37,727 nt of DNA, from positions 1 through 37,727 of the IMG/VR virus record IMGVR_UViG_2909288124_000007. One strand, written 5' to 3'. Below the pieces are notes generated by a model. It was not told where the DNA came from and searched no databases. It saw only the letters and a list, made by a program, of their open reading frames with translations. The position numbers were made by a program, and so were the translations under genes. Below, one piece after another: positions 1,782 to 37,727 of this stretch; the stretch's first letter is position 1, and each line of letters opens with the position of its first letter. Origin of the DNA: a virus (Duplodnaviria > Heunggongvirae > Uroviricota > Caudoviricetes).

Positions 1782-3035
1782 ATGAAAGTTGAAATGAATA
1801 CTAAACTTTTGGCCTATTTAAACAATGAGTTACATGGAGTGTGGGTAGATAGTGAAAATCGTAATATCCACATAATACTTAAATCAAGCCTTCCTATAAT
1901 TAAATCCGTCTGGTCAGGAGCACCTATCCACTTTTTGGTAGGTTTATCTACTAAAAATATACTAGTGATTGGGATGTTGATTGAAGATAATGTCGATAAT
2001 CCATTTTTACTAGCCTATCCACCAAGAGAGGCAGATGAAATTAAAGGGCTGGATTTGTTATTGTCAGGCGCTTATGATGGTATTCTATTATCATTTTTTG
2101 ACTCGCATACAATGCGTGTTATGGACCTGAAAATAAAAGTTTCGGAAAATTTACCGTGTGAATGTTTAAAAAAATTTTGTGCTAATTCATATTCTCTCAA
2201 TTCAGGATTTAGGGAAGGTAATGAAGCAATGGATGAATTCTGCAACAATGCTTTGACTGGTAACGAGAAAATAATTAGTCTGCCACTAAGTGTAATCGAT
2301 AAAAAATCTTACCTAGCAAGTGTTCATGAACCAAACGATACCGTATTAACATATGAATTTAGCGTCAGTGAAAACGGCTCTGAGGGATATGAGCAGGAAG
2401 CTCTTATATACCATGCTTTGCGGCAGGTCTTTTCAACGGAGGAAGTGTTTTTTTCTCCAGATATTATTGAGGGTAATAAAAAAAGAGAACTAGTTGATAT
2501 TCTTATTGTAGAAAATGACTATGTATTATCTATACAGTCTAAAGCATCATCTTTGATTGAAATGGGTTTGAAATCTCATGAAAAGCTTTGTAGCATGTAT
2601 AAGAAAAAAGCATTGCAAGGGATCGATCAGGTTAAAGGCGTTATCCCAATTCTAAATAATGATGTGGTTATTAATTATGACGGGAGGGAATGCTTAATAA
2701 AGCGCAGAAAGGGTATTTATCATTTAGTGATAATCTCAGATCTTGTTTTAGAGAAAGAAGGTGCTGAAAAGATTTATAACGAAATTAGCAACCTTAAAGA
2801 GTCAAAAGGGGCGAAAGTTTTAGTTATGAGCCTTGAAGGTCTTGTAAATTTTATAAGACTATCAAGATTAAATAAAAGAATGTTTTGGGCAATGCTGGAG
2901 GCTAAATACAAGTTCAGCATAAAAAACCGTACAATTTTAATTAGAGATATCGACTCTAGCCAAGAGAATAATCTACCATTACTTGCCACTGATCAATACC
3001 TATCACTTCTTCGAGGTACGGGAAAATTAAAATAA
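1782..3035 (+). CDS. hypothetical AT-rich cargo protein (417 aa); candidate defence/abortive-infection effector with a possible PD-(D/E)xK-like core
   Basis: Long uninterrupted ORF with AGGA upstream (alternative start ATG 1794); base composition visibly far more AT-rich than flanking phage genes; lies between int and the xis-containing operon, convergent with the latter; no recognisable phage structural or regulatory motifs. Confidence 0.6.
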   Translation: MKVEMNTKLLAYLNNELHGVWVDSENRNIHIILKSSLPIIKSVWSGAPIHFLVGLSTKNILVIGMLIEDNVDNPFLLAYPPREADEIKGLDLLLSGAYDGILLSFFDSHTMRVMDLKIKVSENLPCECLKKFCANSYSLNSGFREGNEAMDEFCNNALTGNEKIISLPLSVIDKKSYLASVHEPNDTVLTYEFSVSENGSEGYEQEALIYHALRQVFSTEEVFFSPDIIEGNKKRELVDILIVENDYVLSIQSKASSLIEMGLKSHEKLCSMYKKKALQGIDQVKGVIPILNNDVVINYDGRECLIKRRKGIYHLVIISDLVLEKEGAEKIYNEISNLKESKGAKVLVMSLEGLVNFIRLSRLNKRMFWAMLEAKYKFSIKNRTILIRDIDSSQENNLPLLATDQYLSLLRGTGKLK

Positions 3036-3515: not shown

Positions 3516-3859
3516 TGTTGACCCTCCTGTGGTTGTGCAGTTGAAAGACTCATGCCAGCGCGTTGTTTCCAGACGACCCAGCCGAGAGCCATATCCCACG
3601 CCATGTACTCGTTATCACCGTTTTTTGCTCTCCGACGATCGACTGTTTTACCGAAACGCTTTTCCATAAATAATTCATAGGCTGCGCGTTCATCTGGCTC
3701 AACTTCCAGAGATGCCAGTGCAATCCGTGCCAGTTCTAAATCATCTTCAAGCTCAGCGCGAATCTCAGCGAATGCACTCTGTGTTAAGGCGAACTCAATG
3801 CTCTGCACTTTATTCCGTGCGCGCTCAAGTAGTGCATGGTAGTTAATTTCGGTTGTCAT
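3512..3859 (-). CDS. hypothetical phage early protein (115 aa)
   Basis: ORF with GAGG-containing RBS; ATGA start/stop overlaps with both neighbours indicate an operon. Confidence 0.55.
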   Translation of the reverse strand: MTTEINYHALLERARNKVQSIEFALTQSAFAEIRAELEDDLELARIALASLEVEPDERAAYELFMEKRFGKTVDRRRAKNGDNEYMAWDMALGWVVWKQRAGMSLSTAQPQEGQQ

Positions 3860-4734
3860 ACCCCTACCTCTTCGAATTTTAATTCCAATTGATCACCCCA
3901 GATTTCACATGACTCTGAACACGAGCCGGTATCGAATCGCCTGGCCTGTACCATCGCCTGATACAAATTTCTGTAGTCGCTGTTGGCAGACATTCTGGCA
4001 ATTCCGTCAAGCGTCAGGTGACCACGGTACATAACGTCTTTACCTGTTCTGCGATGACCATCCCTGACGTGTTTGCCTGTAACCAGCTCATTAAAAACTC
4101 GCATCAGACCAGGTTCGTCTTTACATGCAAGCCCCAGCTTTTGCGTTGACTTTTTGATGCAGAAAACACAGTTCCCGAGATGCTCCGGGATTTGCAAATC
4201 AAAAGGTTGTTTTCGCCACCACCGGATAACATCCGACTTATCAAAATCTGACAGTTCGGCAAGATACCGGATGCCCGATTTCGGTTTCAGCCTACGGGGT
4301 TCGTCTGCACGAATACCCAGCCATGTGATGTAATTACCTCGCCCGAAATGGTTATCGCAGTATTTCGTGAAAGGGATGAGTTTTAGCCTGTCAGTACAGA
4401 ACGCGCCACCGATGTATGGCGTGCCGTACTTTTTAACCATGTCCATAAACGGTTTAAGTACCGGCATTCGCGTCTGAATATCCTTTGGCTCCCATTCTGT
4501 ATAACCATTTGGCTGCCCAAGCTCAGGATTGATATCGACCTGCAACACAGTTAGTGGTATGCCCCAGAACTTCACAACCTCCCGAATAAAGCGGTATGTC
4601 AGCGGATGTTCGCAACCGGTATCCATAAAGATGTAGCAGACGTTATTGCCAGCCTTTCTTTGTTCTTCCATCAGGTGAACAAGATATGCGGATGTTCTCC
4701 CGCCAGAAAAACTAACTACATGAGTTATGCACAT
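3856..4734 (-). CDS. phosphoadenosine phosphosulfate (PAPS) reductase family / PP-loop protein
   Basis: PP-loop-like motif VVSFSGGRTS near the N-terminus (SGGxDS-type with Asp replaced by Thr). Start taken at ATG 4734 (MCITHVVSF…) because the longer ORF would overlap the upstream gene by about 120 nt; start uncertain. Confidence 0.65.
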   Translation of the reverse strand: MCITHVVSFSGGRTSAYLVHLMEEQRKAGNNVCYIFMDTGCEHPLTYRFIREVVKFWGIPLTVLQVDINPELGQPNGYTEWEPKDIQTRMPVLKPFMDMVKKYGTPYIGGAFCTDRLKLIPFTKYCDNHFGRGNYITWLGIRADEPRRLKPKSGIRYLAELSDFDKSDVIRWWRKQPFDLQIPEHLGNCVFCIKKSTQKLGLACKDEPGLMRVFNELVTGKHVRDGHRRTGKDVMYRGHLTLDGIARMSANSDYRNLYQAMVQARRFDTGSCSESCEIWGDQLELKFEEVGV

Positions 4735-5261
4735 TTGCGTAATTCCGATAACTCGTTGAAGCGTTCCATAAACATCCCGTAGGCATGGCCCGGTGCCAGT
4801 GGAATAACTTTGAACATCTCTGTTGCCGGGATACCTTCCAGTACAGGCCATAAAGAGCCATCATCAAGCCCGAGATCACGGCGTTCGGTTGCCAGCATGA
4901 TGAGATCGGCATATTTCACAGGCGTGCTCATAACCGGGGGCAACTCGTATTTCTCACGGATTACTGCATCTATTTTTTCTTCCATCCGTTTATAGTCAGG
5001 AAGAAGGCGTTTCAGTGGTGCGGGGATGTCCTGGCAATACGCTTCTGTTGCATCATGCATTAACGCTTCAAAAGCAAATTCCTGCGGCACCAGCTGGCTG
5101 CAAAGCACCGCATGTTGGGCGACGCTGTAGAAGTGAGAAAGATGACCGGCAAAGCGGCAGATATTTGAAAGGGAAACCGCGATATCGTTAATCACGATGT
5201 CGTCTTTATTTATCCTGTCATAATAAAAATGCTTCCCGGAAAAAGTTTTAATAAATGACAT
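4725..5261 (-). CDS. HD-domain phosphohydrolase (YfdR-like 5'-deoxynucleotidase family)
   Basis: H…HD-type metal-binding signature (…AQHAVLCSQ… / …LMHDATEAY…); GGAG 6 nt upstream of ATG at 5261 gives a 178-aa product; length and context resemble CPS-53 yfdR as I recall it. Confidence 0.7.
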   Translation of the reverse strand: MSFIKTFSGKHFYYDRINKDDIVINDIAVSLSNICRFAGHLSHFYSVAQHAVLCSQLVPQEFAFEALMHDATEAYCQDIPAPLKRLLPDYKRMEEKIDAVIREKYELPPVMSTPVKYADLIMLATERRDLGLDDGSLWPVLEGIPATEMFKVIPLAPGHAYGMFMERFNELSELRKCA

Positions 5262-5388: not shown

Positions 5389-6213
5389 TCAGGCGGTGAA
5401 AGTACCAATAAAGGTTTCTACTTTGCTGTCTTTGAATTTCTCAACAAGCAGATCACGAAATTCGTTAGCCATATCTTCCTGCACCGCTTCCAGCTGAATA
5501 ATGCGCAGAACCAGTACAGGACGATCGCCAGTGATAATGCTGAGGCGTAATTTAAACGGACGTTCTTTCAGACCTTCAAACGGAACGCATTTAAATTCAA
5601 ATGCCACTGGCATAATGTCTTTGGTCTTCGCTTCGACAGATTCCATCAGGGAGCGTTTGCCGCTGAAGTCATTATCTTCAAAATCAGCGGTCTGGTTTGC
5701 TTCAATCGTGATTTTACGGATTGCCGCAGCCGCTTTTGTTGCCTGAATGGCGTCACCATTAGCATCAAAGCCCACAAGGTAGTCGGCCCAGTCTTCAATC
5801 CATTCTGCCAGTGATTTCTGGGAGTTACGCTCGCCGTTAACAGACAACAGGGCAGAGAACGGTGCTGTCTTTTTCAGTTTGAGAGTGGCGGTGTTATCTG
5901 CGTGACCTGGTTCATCAATAGTACCCAGGTTAAGCACACTGACGGCACGCATATTATCAGCATCGATAAAGCAGCGGGTGCCTTCATCTGCAAGATCTTT
6001 AGAATAACGGGTAAAGTCATCGATGCTGGCAGTGGAAAGCGCACCACGGAAACGGAAGCGATTTAAATTAAATTTTTCCAGATCATGAATGCGGAAATTC
6101 TCAGGCAATGCCACAGCATCGGCACCAATCTTACTGATAATTTCATTAACACCCTGAGCAGAAATAAGGGCATGGATTTGATTAATTGCGGTTGCGTCTA
6201 AGTTCTGAGACAT
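5389..6213 (-). CDS. YfdQ-like protein (DUF2303-like), function unknown
   Basis: 274-aa ORF directly upstream of the HD gene in the same operon; size and neighbourhood match the yfdP-yfdQ-yfdR arrangement of E. coli prophage CPS-53 (from memory). Confidence 0.6.
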
Positions 6214-18472: not shown

Positions 18473-18967
18473 ATGGCTGGAACGGCGGGGCGTTCCGGGC
18501 GTCGCCCCAAGCCAACGGCGCGCAAGGCGCTGGCCGGAAACCCCGGCAAGCGAGCCCTGAATAAAGATGAACCTGTTTTTACGCCCATCAAAGGTGTTGA
18601 GCCACCGGAGTGGTTCGCTGAAGAAGATCTCCCTCTCGCCACGATCATGTGGCAACTGACAACCAAAGAACTCTGCGGTCAGGGCCTGCTGTGCGTGACT
18701 GACCTCGCGGTGCTTGAGCGGTGGTGCGTGGCCTATGAGTTCTGGCGACGTGCCGTGAAAAATATTGCCAGCCAGGGCAACACCATTACCGGTGCAATGG
18801 GCGGTATGGTCAAAAATCCGGAGCTGACCGCCAAGAAAGAACAGGAGTCCGAGATGAGCAGCACTGGGGCAATGCTCGGACTCGACCCCAGCAGCCGCCA
18901 GCGTCTGATTGGCCTGGCGGGGCAGAAGAAAGCCACTAACCCGTTTCTGAAAATCATCGAGTCATGA
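18473..18967 (+). CDS. terminase small subunit (P27 family)
   Basis: [36 protein letters not shown]… matches the P27-type TerS N-terminus; AGGAG 8 nt upstream of ATG 18473 (the annotated ORF starts at an upstream GTG). Confidence 0.8.
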
Positions 18968-20697
18968 GCCGGAAATCTTACCCCAACGTAAATGCTGCCA
19001 ATCAGTATGCCCGGGATGTCGTGCGCGGAAAGATTGTTGCCTGCCAGTTTGTGATTCAGGCCTGCCAGCGCCATCTTGATGACCTGATGGCGGAAAAAAG
19101 TAAGTCGTTTCGTTACCGCTTCGACAAGGACCTGGCTGAACGGGCCGCGAAATTTATTCAGCTGTTGCCGCACACCAAGGGTGAGTGGGCATTCAAACGG
19201 ATGCCCATCACGCTGGAGCCGTGGCAGCTATTTGTGATCTGCTGTGCGTTTGGCTGGGTCAATAAAGGCACCCGGTTGCGCCGCTTCCGGGAGGTGTATA
19301 CCGAAATCCCCCGTAAGAACGGCAAATCAGCAATCTCTGCCGGTGTTGCCCTGTATTGTTTTGCCTGTGATAACGAGTTTGGCGCGGAAGTGTATTCCGG
19401 TGCCACGACAGAGAAACAGGCGTGGGAAGTCTTTCGCCCGGCGCGACTGATGTGTAAACGCACACCCATGCTGACGGAAGCGTTCGGGATTGAGGTTAAC
19501 GCCTCAAACATGAACCGTCCGGAGGATGGCGCGCGGTTTGAACCGCTGATCGGCAACCCCGGTGATGGTTCATCACCCCACTGTGCCGTGGTTGATGAAT
19601 ATCACGAGCATGCCACCGATGCGCTTTATACCACAATGCTTACCGGGATGGGGGCGCGACGTCAGCCACTGATGTGGGCCATCACCACCGCCGGGTACAA
19701 CATTGAGGGGCCGTGCTACGACAAGCGGCGGGAAGTCATCGAGATGCTCAACGGCTCGGTGCCTAACGATGAACTGTTCGGGATCATCTATACCGTTGAT
19801 GAAGGTGACGACTGGACCGACCCGCAGGTGCTGGAAAAAGCCAATCCAAATATTGGCGTGTCGGTTTATCGCGAATTTTTGTTAAGTCAGCAGCAGCGTG
19901 CGAAAAATAACGCCCGTCTGGCAAACGTCTTTAAAACAAAACACCTCAATATCTGGGTGTCGGCACGTTCGGCGTATTTCAACCTGGTGAGCTGGCAGAG
20001 CTGCGAGGATAAATCACTGACCCTTGAGCAGTTCGAGGGGCAGCCGTGCATTCTGGCCTTTGACCTGGCGCGTAAGCTGGATATGAACAGCATGGCGCGA
20101 CTTTATACCCGCGAGATTGACGGTAAAACGCATTACTACAGTGTGGCCCCGCGCTTCTGGGTACCGTATGACACGGTGTACAGCGTCGAGAAAAATGAAG
20201 ATAGACGGACAGCCGAACGCTTTCAGAAATGGGTGGAAATGGGCGTCCTGACCGTTACCGATGGTGCAGAGGTGGATTATCGCTACATCCTCGAAGAGGC
20301 CAAAGCGGCGAACAAAATCAGCCCGGTCAGTGAGTCACCCATCGACCCCTTCGGGGCGACCGGGCTGTCACATGACCTTGCTGATGAAGATCTGAATCCC
20401 GTCACTATCGTCCAGAACTTCGCCAATATGTCCGATCCGATGAAAGAGCTGGAAGCAGCGATTGAATCGGGACGCTTTCATCATGACGGCAATCCCATCA
20501 TGACCTGGTGTATCGGCAATGTGGTCGGCAAAAACATGCCAGGTAACGATGATTTAGTGAAGCCCGTCAAGGAGCAGGCGGAAAACAAAATCGATGGTGC
20601 GGTTGCACTGATTATGACGATCGGTCGGGCAATGCTCAAAGAACCTGACGATTTCCTCTCATCTCTTGATCCGGACGATGATCTCTTAATTCTATGA
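18964..20697 (+). CDS. terminase large subunit
   Basis: 577-aa ORF coupled to terS (ATGA overlap); size and position are canonical. ATPase/nuclease motifs not individually verified. Confidence 0.85.
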
Positions 20698-35969: not shown

Positions 35970-36571
35970 TGAATAAAGCCGTATTAAATAACGAACTCAT
36001 TGCCATAAAAGCGGGAGTCATTACCATTTATAATTATGATGGTGAAACGCGGGAATATATTTCCACATCAACTGAATGTCTTGCGGTTGGCGTCGGTATC
36101 CCGGCATGTTCTTGTTTAGATGCACCAGTTACACATAAAGCTGGTTATGCAATCTGCCGTTCTGCAGATTTTAACTCATGGGAATATGTGCCAGACCATC
36201 GCGGTGAAATCATCTATAGCACCGAAACAGGAGAATCGAAAGAAATCACAGCTCCGGGTGATTATCCTGAAAATACAACCACTATCGCCCCGTTAACGCC
36301 ATACGATAAATGGGATGGTGAGAAATGGGTGACGGATACCGAGGCACAGCATAGCGCCGCAGTAGAAGCGGCAGAAGCACAGCGCCAGTCGCTGATTGAT
36401 GCTGCAATGGCTTCCATCAGTCTGATTCAACTGAAATTACAGGCCGGGCGGAAGCTGACGCAGCCAGAAAACACCCGACTTAACGCTGTGCTGGATTATA
36501 TTGACGCGGTGACGGCAACAGATACCAGCACAGCGCCGGACGTCATCTGGCCTGAACTGCCGGAGGCGTAG
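35969..36571 (+). CDS. tail fibre assembly protein (Tfa/U-like)
   Basis: 200-aa ORF immediately after the tail fibre gene; conserved C-terminal segment shared with the inverted Tfa' gene (…VDTSGAPDIEWP… / …TDTSTAPDVIWPELP…). Confidence 0.75.
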   Translation: MNKAVLNNELIAIKAGVITIYNYDGETREYISTSTECLAVGVGIPACSCLDAPVTHKAGYAICRSADFNSWEYVPDHRGEIIYSTETGESKEITAPGDYPENTTTIAPLTPYDKWDGEKWVTDTEAQHSAAVEAAEAQRQSLIDAAMASISLIQLKLQAGRKLTQPENTRLNAVLDYIDAVTATDTSTAPDVIWPELPEA

Positions 36572-36983
36572 GCCATTCAATATCTGGCGCACCGGAAGTA
36601 TCGACCAGCTCCAGTGCGTCCAGATAATCCAGCCACAAATTATATTGCGCCAGTTCCTCACCTTTCAGGCGACCAATCGCCGCTTTACCAGGCCATTGCT
36701 TACTGTTTATGTATTCGTTGACCTGATTAATCAATTGCTGCTTTTCCAGTTCGGCTGCGGCAATTTGTTCCTCATGAGTTGGCGGTGGAATATCAATCCA
36801 TGCAGGCATTCCGTCGATGACACCTCTGTATTTTCCTTCTGGTGCTTCCTTCATAAATTCGGCGGCAACAGTGTCGTCAATTTCGATTCCATCACCGGGC
36901 CATTCGCCGGATTCCTGATAAGCGATTTTAAGCTCCACAGGGAAAAACGCATTTTTATCGGCACTGAAAATATATTTCTGCAT
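36543..36983 (-). CDS. alternative tail fibre assembly protein (Tfa') inside the invertible segment
   Basis: 146-aa minus-strand ORF, convergent with Tfa and sharing its C-terminal motif. Confidence 0.7.
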   Translation of the reverse strand: MQKYIFSADKNAFFPVELKIAYQESGEWPGDGIEIDDTVAAEFMKEAPEGKYRGVIDGMPAWIDIPPPTHEEQIAAAELEKQQLINQVNEYINSKQWPGKAAIGRLKGEELAQYNLWLDYLDALELVDTSGAPDIEWPTPPAVQAR

Positions 36984-36984
36984 T

Positions 36985-37383
36985 TCACCGTCCTATCGAA
37001 ATATAACTGAATCTGTATTGCTGTGAGATATCACTGGTTGCCACACGCCACGCTGAATTACTGATATGTTCAAAATTTACAGACAAAACTTGCGGGGCAG
37101 GATTCGACGGGTCTGACTGAACGGCATCAGACATAACACTGACTGAAACCATCGGCTGATTAGGGAATGGTATAGGGAAGTGTCCACTGATAAAGCGGGT
37201 CGTGTTTCCTGAAAAAGTGCCAAACTGAACAATATATCCACCTGGTAGCCTGAACCATCCCGAACCAGAAGCGAATGCTCCCATATCCGGTATCTGATTA
37301 TCTCCTGTGCCCACATCCCTTTTCGCCGCTTCTCCCAAACCAACGTTTATGAAAATGCAGAAATAACGAGCAAATGGCATCAT
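36985..37383 (-). CDS. alternative tail fibre C-terminal variable segment (Sv'), promoterless in current orientation
   Basis: Minus-strand ORF whose 5' portion (…NVGLGEAAKR…) mirrors the crossover region of the expressed fibre (…[11 protein letters not shown]…); would fuse to the constant fibre N-terminus after inversion. Confidence 0.65.
   Translation of the reverse strand: MMPFARYFCIFINVGLGEAAKRDVGTGDNQIPDMGAFASGSGWFRLPGGYIVQFGTFSGNTTRFISGHFPIPFPNQPMVSVSVMSDAVQSDPSNPAPQVLSVNFEHISNSAWRVATSDISQQYRFSYISIGR
37329..37355. repeat. right crossover site of the invertible segment
   Basis: CTTCTCCCAAACCAACGTTTATGAAAA; first 15 nt are the exact reverse complement of the left site. Confidence 0.75.
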
Positions 37384-37409: not shown

Positions 37410-37727
37410 ATGCTTATTGGCTATGTACGTGTGTCAACAAATGACCAGAACACAGATCTACAACGTAATGCGCTGAACTGTGCAGGATGCGAGCTGATTT
37501 TTGAAGACAAGATAAGCGGTACAAAGTCCGAAAGGCCGGGACTGAAAAAACTGCTCAGGACATTATCGGCAGGTGACACGCTGATTATCTGGAAACTGGA
37601 CTGGCTGGGATTATATAAAACCGCAGACACGTCGTATGCAAGAACGCGCTGCGGTTGGCTGGTAAAATTTTCGATAGTGCGAGTATTGAATGATTTCCAG
37701 CCGTTACAGATTTTACGTGCTAATTAG
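37410..37727 (+). CDS. serine recombinase, Pin/Gin/Hin-type DNA invertase; frame ends prematurely after a divergent tail (possibly truncated)
   Basis: MLIGYVRVSTNDQNTDLQRNALNCAGCELIFEDKISGTKSERPGLKKLLRTLSAGDTLIIWKLD… matches the invertase catalytic domain (Ser in VRVSTNDQ); after …WKLDWLG the sequence diverges and stops at 37725-37727, only about 106 aa from the start. Confidence 0.7.
   Translation: MLIGYVRVSTNDQNTDLQRNALNCAGCELIFEDKISGTKSERPGLKKLLRTLSAGDTLIIWKLDWLGLYKTADTSYARTRCGWLVKFSIVRVLNDFQPLQILRAN

Follow-up and report, generated by a model that had tools for sequence, protein, structure and literature searches.

The Pin-type invertase gene at the end of an SfV/SfIV-like prophage reads as a truncated remnant, yet the tail-fibre segment beside it is found in both orientations next to the same truncated gene in related genomes. 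We consider it very likely that the invertase has been pseudogenized and that the orphaned switch it left behind is still inverted in trans. The tempting inference that a dead neighbouring invertase means a locked switch is therefore corrected here. When host-range switches of prophages are annotated, the adjacent recombinase deserves no more weight than the crossover sites and the enhancer, and a switch that has lost its own enzyme can be kept in operation by invertases that other prophages of the cell encode.

The stretch of DNA analysed, 37,727 nucleotides in length and referred to below as the window, is a full-size prophage with an integrase gene (386-1609), an S24 repressor, a terminase gene (18964-20697) and a Mu-type baseplate. 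Its baseplate and tail module is 97-98% identical to those of the Shigella phages SfV, SfI, SfII and SfIV up to the left crossover site of the switch. Homology to the Sf phages, of which SfV and SfIV are non-invertible, ends exactly at that site, and the invertible cassette of the window is unmatched in them.

The pin remnant and its deletion junction

The truncated pinE-type serine invertase gene occupies 37410..37727 on the plus strand, from an ATG at 37410 to a TAG at 37725-37727, and encodes 105 residues; a second in-frame ATG upstream, at 37374, gives a 117-residue alternative. The initial annotation had described an invertase without the rest of its catalytic domain and without the helix-turn-helix (HTH) domain, and profile and structure comparisons agree. 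The Pfam Resolvase profile covers only residues 3-67 (profile positions 2-76 of 145; E = 7.5e-19) and a Pfam search did not find HTH_7 in the 105-residue frame, whereas full-length PinE (184 residues) consists of Resolvase at 3-135 followed by HTH_7 at 138-180. The top match among solved structures is Mu Gin (4m6f/3uj3), over residues 1-68 of 193 (E = 8e-31). When the frame is aligned to Pin and Gin, as had been proposed, only residues 1-67 resemble these enzymes. The reading frame and its stop are as first described, but the point of divergence is not: it had been placed after the IWKLD motif, and homology continues for three more codons, through W65-L66-G67.

The basic helix-B region survives in the remnant, as does the catalytic start MLIGYVRVST with the nucleophilic Ser9 of the YVRVS motif. 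Of the arginines of the KLDRLGR motif, R65 is replaced by W and R68 is gone; there is no Pin homology after G67, and the complete serine-invertase catalytic domain, with its arginines and helix E, is absent. The last 38 residues (codons 68-105) are translated intergenic sequence. Because the frame fails two defining features of serine invertases, we file this gene of an SfV/e14-like prophage as a pin pseudogene, and its read-through product would be unable to bind or cut DNA. The identical gene has been annotated by PGAP as 'recombinase family protein; incomplete; missing C-terminus', and the identical 105-residue product is on record for 90 contigs. To this extent the locus shows the usual decay of a prophage, and the gene's pseudogene status is already noted in RefSeq.

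We aligned the window with the full-length pinE genes of e14 (strain H3, L005) and of a dusA prophage (L002). Near-identity extends from the ATG as far as 37609-37611 and gives way to a gap of 346 columns, after which the sequences are homologous again over 37612-37727. The deletion junction thus lies at 37609..37612, and about 346 bp are missing relative to full-length pinE, comprising codons 68-184 and the stop codon, in line with the earlier suggestion that the divergence point marks a deletion boundary. Because the pin stop codon was deleted, translation continues into the intergenic DNA and ends at a TAG that shares bases with the stop codon of a DinI-like gene. The alternative that the divergence is a sequencing artefact, also raised in the initial annotation, is excluded by its recurrence in many independent assemblies.

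A junction-specific query was matched without a break in at least 20 of 5426 complete E. coli genomes, in 7 of which the junction is 100% identical to that of the window; the pinE-type 3' part is present in about 1600 genomes. An exact scan for the junction found no match among GTDB species representatives, and exact scans of viral and metagenome sequences yielded 5 loci. Although the first ~170 bp of the remnant are nearly identical to pinE, to which megablast matches end at 37609, the final ~28 bp left of the junction carry five differences from e14 and are more like those of older junction alleles (C41, L006). The remnant therefore looks like a mosaic of an e14-like 5' end and an older stretch beside the junction. 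Microhomology at C(T/A)GGGG is a plausible cause of the deletion; the exact ancestral allele was not found. We rejected a Pin-mediated deletion at a secondary site. The sequence TTATATAAAACC at the junction is half-site-like, but the whole of this motif derives from the right-hand parent, and the break is to its left rather than at its core.

The same junction and downstream DNA also stand behind a different invertase 5' allele in four loci, L013, L014, L016 and L018 (MIYGYVRVSTNHQ... / MIYGYVRVSTNHQDTELQRLALESAGCERIY...; compare window 37585-37665). In complete genomes this second allele belongs to a prophage adjoining the pao genes (paoC/paoD), where it occurs in full-length (L017, 187 residues) and truncated (L018) forms. 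The ~25 bp left of the junction on the second allele are pin-like, unlike the full-length allele of the pao prophage. One junction could have come to stand behind two alleles through a mosaic ancestor or through recombination across ~10 identical bp.

The initial annotation had left room for the missing part of the invertase to lie beyond the window end. At near-identical loci in the 7 complete genomes and 10 further assemblies, the truncated pin gene is instead followed by the DinI-like gene (often frameshifted), an AT-rich hypothetical gene of 437 codons and prfC; in strain C41, prfC comes directly after the DinI-like gene. The missing 3' part is absent downstream at all these loci, none of which has an intact in-frame full-length invertase there.

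The invertible segment and its fibre cassettes

Two 26-bp crossover sites, one of them within the fibre gene, flank the segment in inverted orientation, with 20 nucleotides in common. The right site (37330..37355, plus strand) reads TTCTCCCAAACC AA CGTTTATGAAAA, and the left site (35446..35471, minus strand) reads TTCTCCCAAACC AA GGTTTTCGAGAG as its reverse complement; both are identical to the sites of e14 (L005) and of prophages with full-length pinE. The invertible segment between them is of the P-segment type and measures 1882 bp (35460..37341). Its sequence matches the oppositely oriented e14 P segment of strain H3 at 99.4% identity, and the segment of the dusA prophage, which has the same orientation as that of the window, at 99.2%.

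In the present orientation, the tail-fibre gene that is assembled (35169..35969, plus strand; 266 residues) joins a constant N-terminus, extending to about residue 100, to a variable part with a Collar domain. It is followed, in the expressed position, by the gene for a TfaE-like tail-fibre assembly protein (35969..36571, plus strand; 200 residues; Caudo_TAP). On the minus strand lie the genes of the alternative state: a TfaP-like assembly protein (36543..36983; 146 residues; Caudo_TAP) and an alternative fibre C-terminal cassette (36985..37383; Gp53-like_C), which at present is part of a 132-residue reading frame. Inverting the segment would give an open 215-residue fibre fusion with the Gp53-like_C part, followed by the 146-residue chaperone. 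Either orientation therefore fuses the constant N-terminus in frame, with the 266- and 215-residue products both open and both Tfa genes open. No part of the switch apart from the enzyme is damaged.

The 132-residue frame starts outside the segment (MMPFARYF...; MMPFARYFCIFINVGLGE) and runs on the minus strand into the Gp53-like cassette. The same arrangement has been named StfE2 in K-12 e14 and is reported to block adsorption of phage T2 (PMC12529663). The orientation seen in the window gives a StfE2-type frame, and reduced flipping, if it occurs, could bias lysogens to a phage-resistant state.

The closest known system is that of e14 (pinE, stfP/tfaP/tfaE/stfE), with which the window has in common the crossover sites, the 99.4% identical segment and the layout of fibre and chaperone genes. 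The two differ in that the window invertase lacks codons 68-184, in that e14 is a remnant at icd whereas the window is a prophage of full size and SfV-like, beyond which related genomes have prfC, and in that the downstream neighbour is the DinI-like gene rather than mcrA. The G segment of Mu with Gin and the C segment of P1 with Cin likewise combine a serine-invertase catalytic domain with alternative fibre C-termini and paired assembly genes, and there too the 5' part of the invertase gene is where one expects the enhancer; the enzyme of the window differs in being a truncated and non-functional remnant.

Orientation of the segment beside the truncated gene

We scored the orientation of the segment with a TfaE-like probe at 20 loci that carry this truncation, including the window, with prfC downstream wherever the DNA reaches that far. 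The segment lies as in the window at thirteen of the loci, one of them the window itself, and is reversed at six (L012, L020, L021, L023, L026 and L028); one locus is rearranged. Because the sampling favours diverse contexts, six flipped out of 20 is not an unbiased frequency. It is similar to the value published for the e14 P segment, which is inverted in 33% of 562 genomes that have an intact pinE (PMC12529663).

Three pairs of loci are 100% identical except for a precise inversion of the segment. L001 (strain APEC E123) and L021 match at 1185 of 1185 nucleotides of the left flank, 1856 of 1856 of the reversed segment and 3386 of 3386 of the right flank. The corresponding values for L001 and L012 are 284/284, 1856/1856 and 2978/2978, and those for L023 and L024 are 2025/2025, 1907/1907 and 4386/4386. 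A further two loci, L008 and L020, differ by 2 nucleotides. The inversion breakpoints fall inside the 20-bp inverted repeats, with the outer half-site bases unmoved, a pattern expected of site-specific inversion and not of the import of a foreign segment. Beside the same truncated gene the segment is thus found in both orientations, also in identical twins, and therefore it has flipped repeatedly after the truncation. The initial annotation had raised the possibility that loss of the invertase froze the tail-fibre switch unless an invertase acts in trans; a locked switch is not supported by these observations, which point instead to the caveat.

Loss of the invertase could nevertheless have frozen the segment, so that the prophage makes only the 266-residue fibre. 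The adjacent invertase gene is certainly dead, all nine complete-genome loci with this truncation that we sampled are in the window's orientation, two of their hosts (LP50-1 and VG35A2) carry no other pinE-type 3' part, and full deletion of pinE in K-12 locks the P segment (PMC12529663). Against this stand the six flipped loci and the three pairs that are 100% identical but for precise inversion, and for the lineage as a whole a frozen segment is already contradicted; we regard it as an unlikely account. For the window's own cassette, a search of complete E. coli genomes found no flipped twin beside a truncated pin gene: the matches to a flipped-cassette query all have full-length pinE and end at the junction. 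The nearest flipped locus, L028, has a cassette 88-95% identical to that of the window, and the best matches to the window are 95-98% identical over the tail region. Where a host encodes no invertase that suits these sites, the switch would be frozen, as may be the case in some hosts, and to that degree the idea of a locked switch holds conditionally.

The opposite orientations could also have arisen through homologous import of segments that were already flipped, rather than by inversion in place. Cassettes have clearly been exchanged in these prophages, given that the window segment is 99.4% e14-like and that other loci with the same truncation carry different cassettes, and the junction module is found with two different 5' alleles. 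An imported segment would, however, probably bring differences with it, whereas the twins are 100% identical over 5-8 kb, segment included, and their breakpoints lie in the 20-bp repeats; import is a highly improbable source of the flipped loci. Finally, that the short 105-residue form is itself an active or regulatory invertase can be excluded for practical purposes: Ser9 and the basic helix-B region are kept and the frame is open in every copy examined, but the product has no helix E, has W in place of R65, has lost R68, ends in translated intergenic DNA and lacks the HTH domain that is needed for site binding and contact with Fis (PMC3798978).

Two further observations were made on individual loci. 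In APEC E123, the fibre gene of the current orientation is frameshifted (L001 895-1685), and its flipped twins L012 and L021 have an intact Gp53-like fusion in the expressed position, so in this lineage only one orientation yields a whole fibre. The metagenome contig OGYH01001541.1 (L015), which also carries a truncated pin gene, stops 17 bp past the right crossover site (equivalent to window 37372); mixed orientations in the sample may have broken the assembly at this point.

Proposed inversion in trans and the putative enhancer

Inversion in trans would work as follows. The prophage has lost its own invertase through the ~346-bp deletion after codon 67, which cost it the second and third catalytic arginines, helix E, the HTH domain and the stop codon. 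The crossover sites, the first 200 bp of pin and both fibre cassettes with their chaperone genes remain. The segment would then be inverted in trans by an invertase of the Pin family from another locus of the host, such as PinE of e14, the enzyme of another SfV-like prophage, or PinQ or PinR, working with a Fis enhancer retained in cis. We infer which enzyme acts in trans, and likewise where the enhancer lies and what it does.

Candidate enzymes are present in most of the relevant hosts. Searching with a chimeric query made of the 437-codon gene and the e14 pin 3' part, we found other pinE-type genes with an intact 3' part in five of the seven complete genomes whose junction is identical to that of the window (APEC E123, one; Z1323HEC0423, one; PEC422, three; EcE.CRE.COL, two; EC05, one). 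LP50-1 and VG35A2 have no second pinE-type 3' part detectable at megablast sensitivity. Cross-complementation among Gin, Cin, Pin and Hin is well established. In addition, the e14 P segment is inverted in trans by PinQ of prophage Qin, an enzyme that shares only 38% identity with PinE (PMC12529663; Kirigo et al. 2025). In these cases, as proposed for ours, the invertase of one prophage flips the fibre segment of another. They differ from ours in that the target keeps its own invertase, whereas the target described here has none left and comparative data are what point to trans action. The orphaned switch is therefore a new example and not a new kind, in line with classical trans-complementation and the work on PinQ.

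Invertases of the Pin/Gin/Hin family require a Fis-bound enhancer in cis. A motif scan of the retained 5' part of pin picked out a putative Fis-dependent recombinational enhancer at 37431..37494, consisting of two G-N13-C motifs (37431-37445 and 37480-37494) that are 49 nucleotides apart and centred 96 and 145 nucleotides from the core of the right crossover site. In the Hin system, the proximal Fis site lies ~100 bp from hixL (PMC3798978). By motif and position, the retained 5' part of pin may contain the enhancer. Such a location could also account for the behaviour of the K-12 pinE deletion mutant, in which the P segment is reported to be locked although pinQ and pinR remain (PMC12529663). 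If the K-12 deletion removed the 5' part of the gene, the locked state there and the flipping seen here would both fit an enhancer within that part, and the truncation described here, as a natural contrast to the K-12 mutant, would bear on the position of the Pin enhancer. We suggest, tentatively, that the 5' 200 bp of pin have been kept as a cis-acting Fis enhancer in a prophage that relies on co-resident invertases, and that the enhancer and junction spread as a module between prophage families; we consider this possible but doubtful.

Several minor features accompany the truncation. The DinI-like gene is convergent with pin (L001 3424-3633, where L001 3424 corresponds to window 37724), and its stop codon overlaps window 37724-37726. 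A 29-bp deletion frameshifts it in most relatives, a second sign of decay at this prophage end; in C41 it is intact. The 437-codon hypothetical gene (L001 3868-5181 and equivalents) has no Pfam match on record and occurs in only 7 of 5426 complete genomes, every one of them with the truncated pin gene; it may be a cargo gene of the prophage end.

The DNA at 37612..37727, which before the deletion separated the pin stop codon from the convergent DinI-like gene, is conserved 3' of the full-length invertases of three prophage types. It is predicted to fold into two hairpins, at 37619-37656 and 37657-37702 (z = -2.4). The right part of this element of ~100 nucleotides (window 37619-37702) matches about 300 E. 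coli genomes, in which no feature is annotated there, and its first stem shows one compensatory change in L002. An Rfam search of the junction and downstream element returned only a far sub-threshold match to CssrB (18-22 bits, where the gathering score is 76). The element may be a terminator between the convergent genes or a small RNA.

At the other end of the prophage, the early region by the integrase encodes a 417-residue protein without a Pfam match (1782-3035), a protein with a PAPS-reductase domain (3856-4851) and a DUF2303 protein (5389-6213). In related prophages, the annotated cargo of this region includes dCTP deaminase, Dsr1 and DUF6602 proteins.
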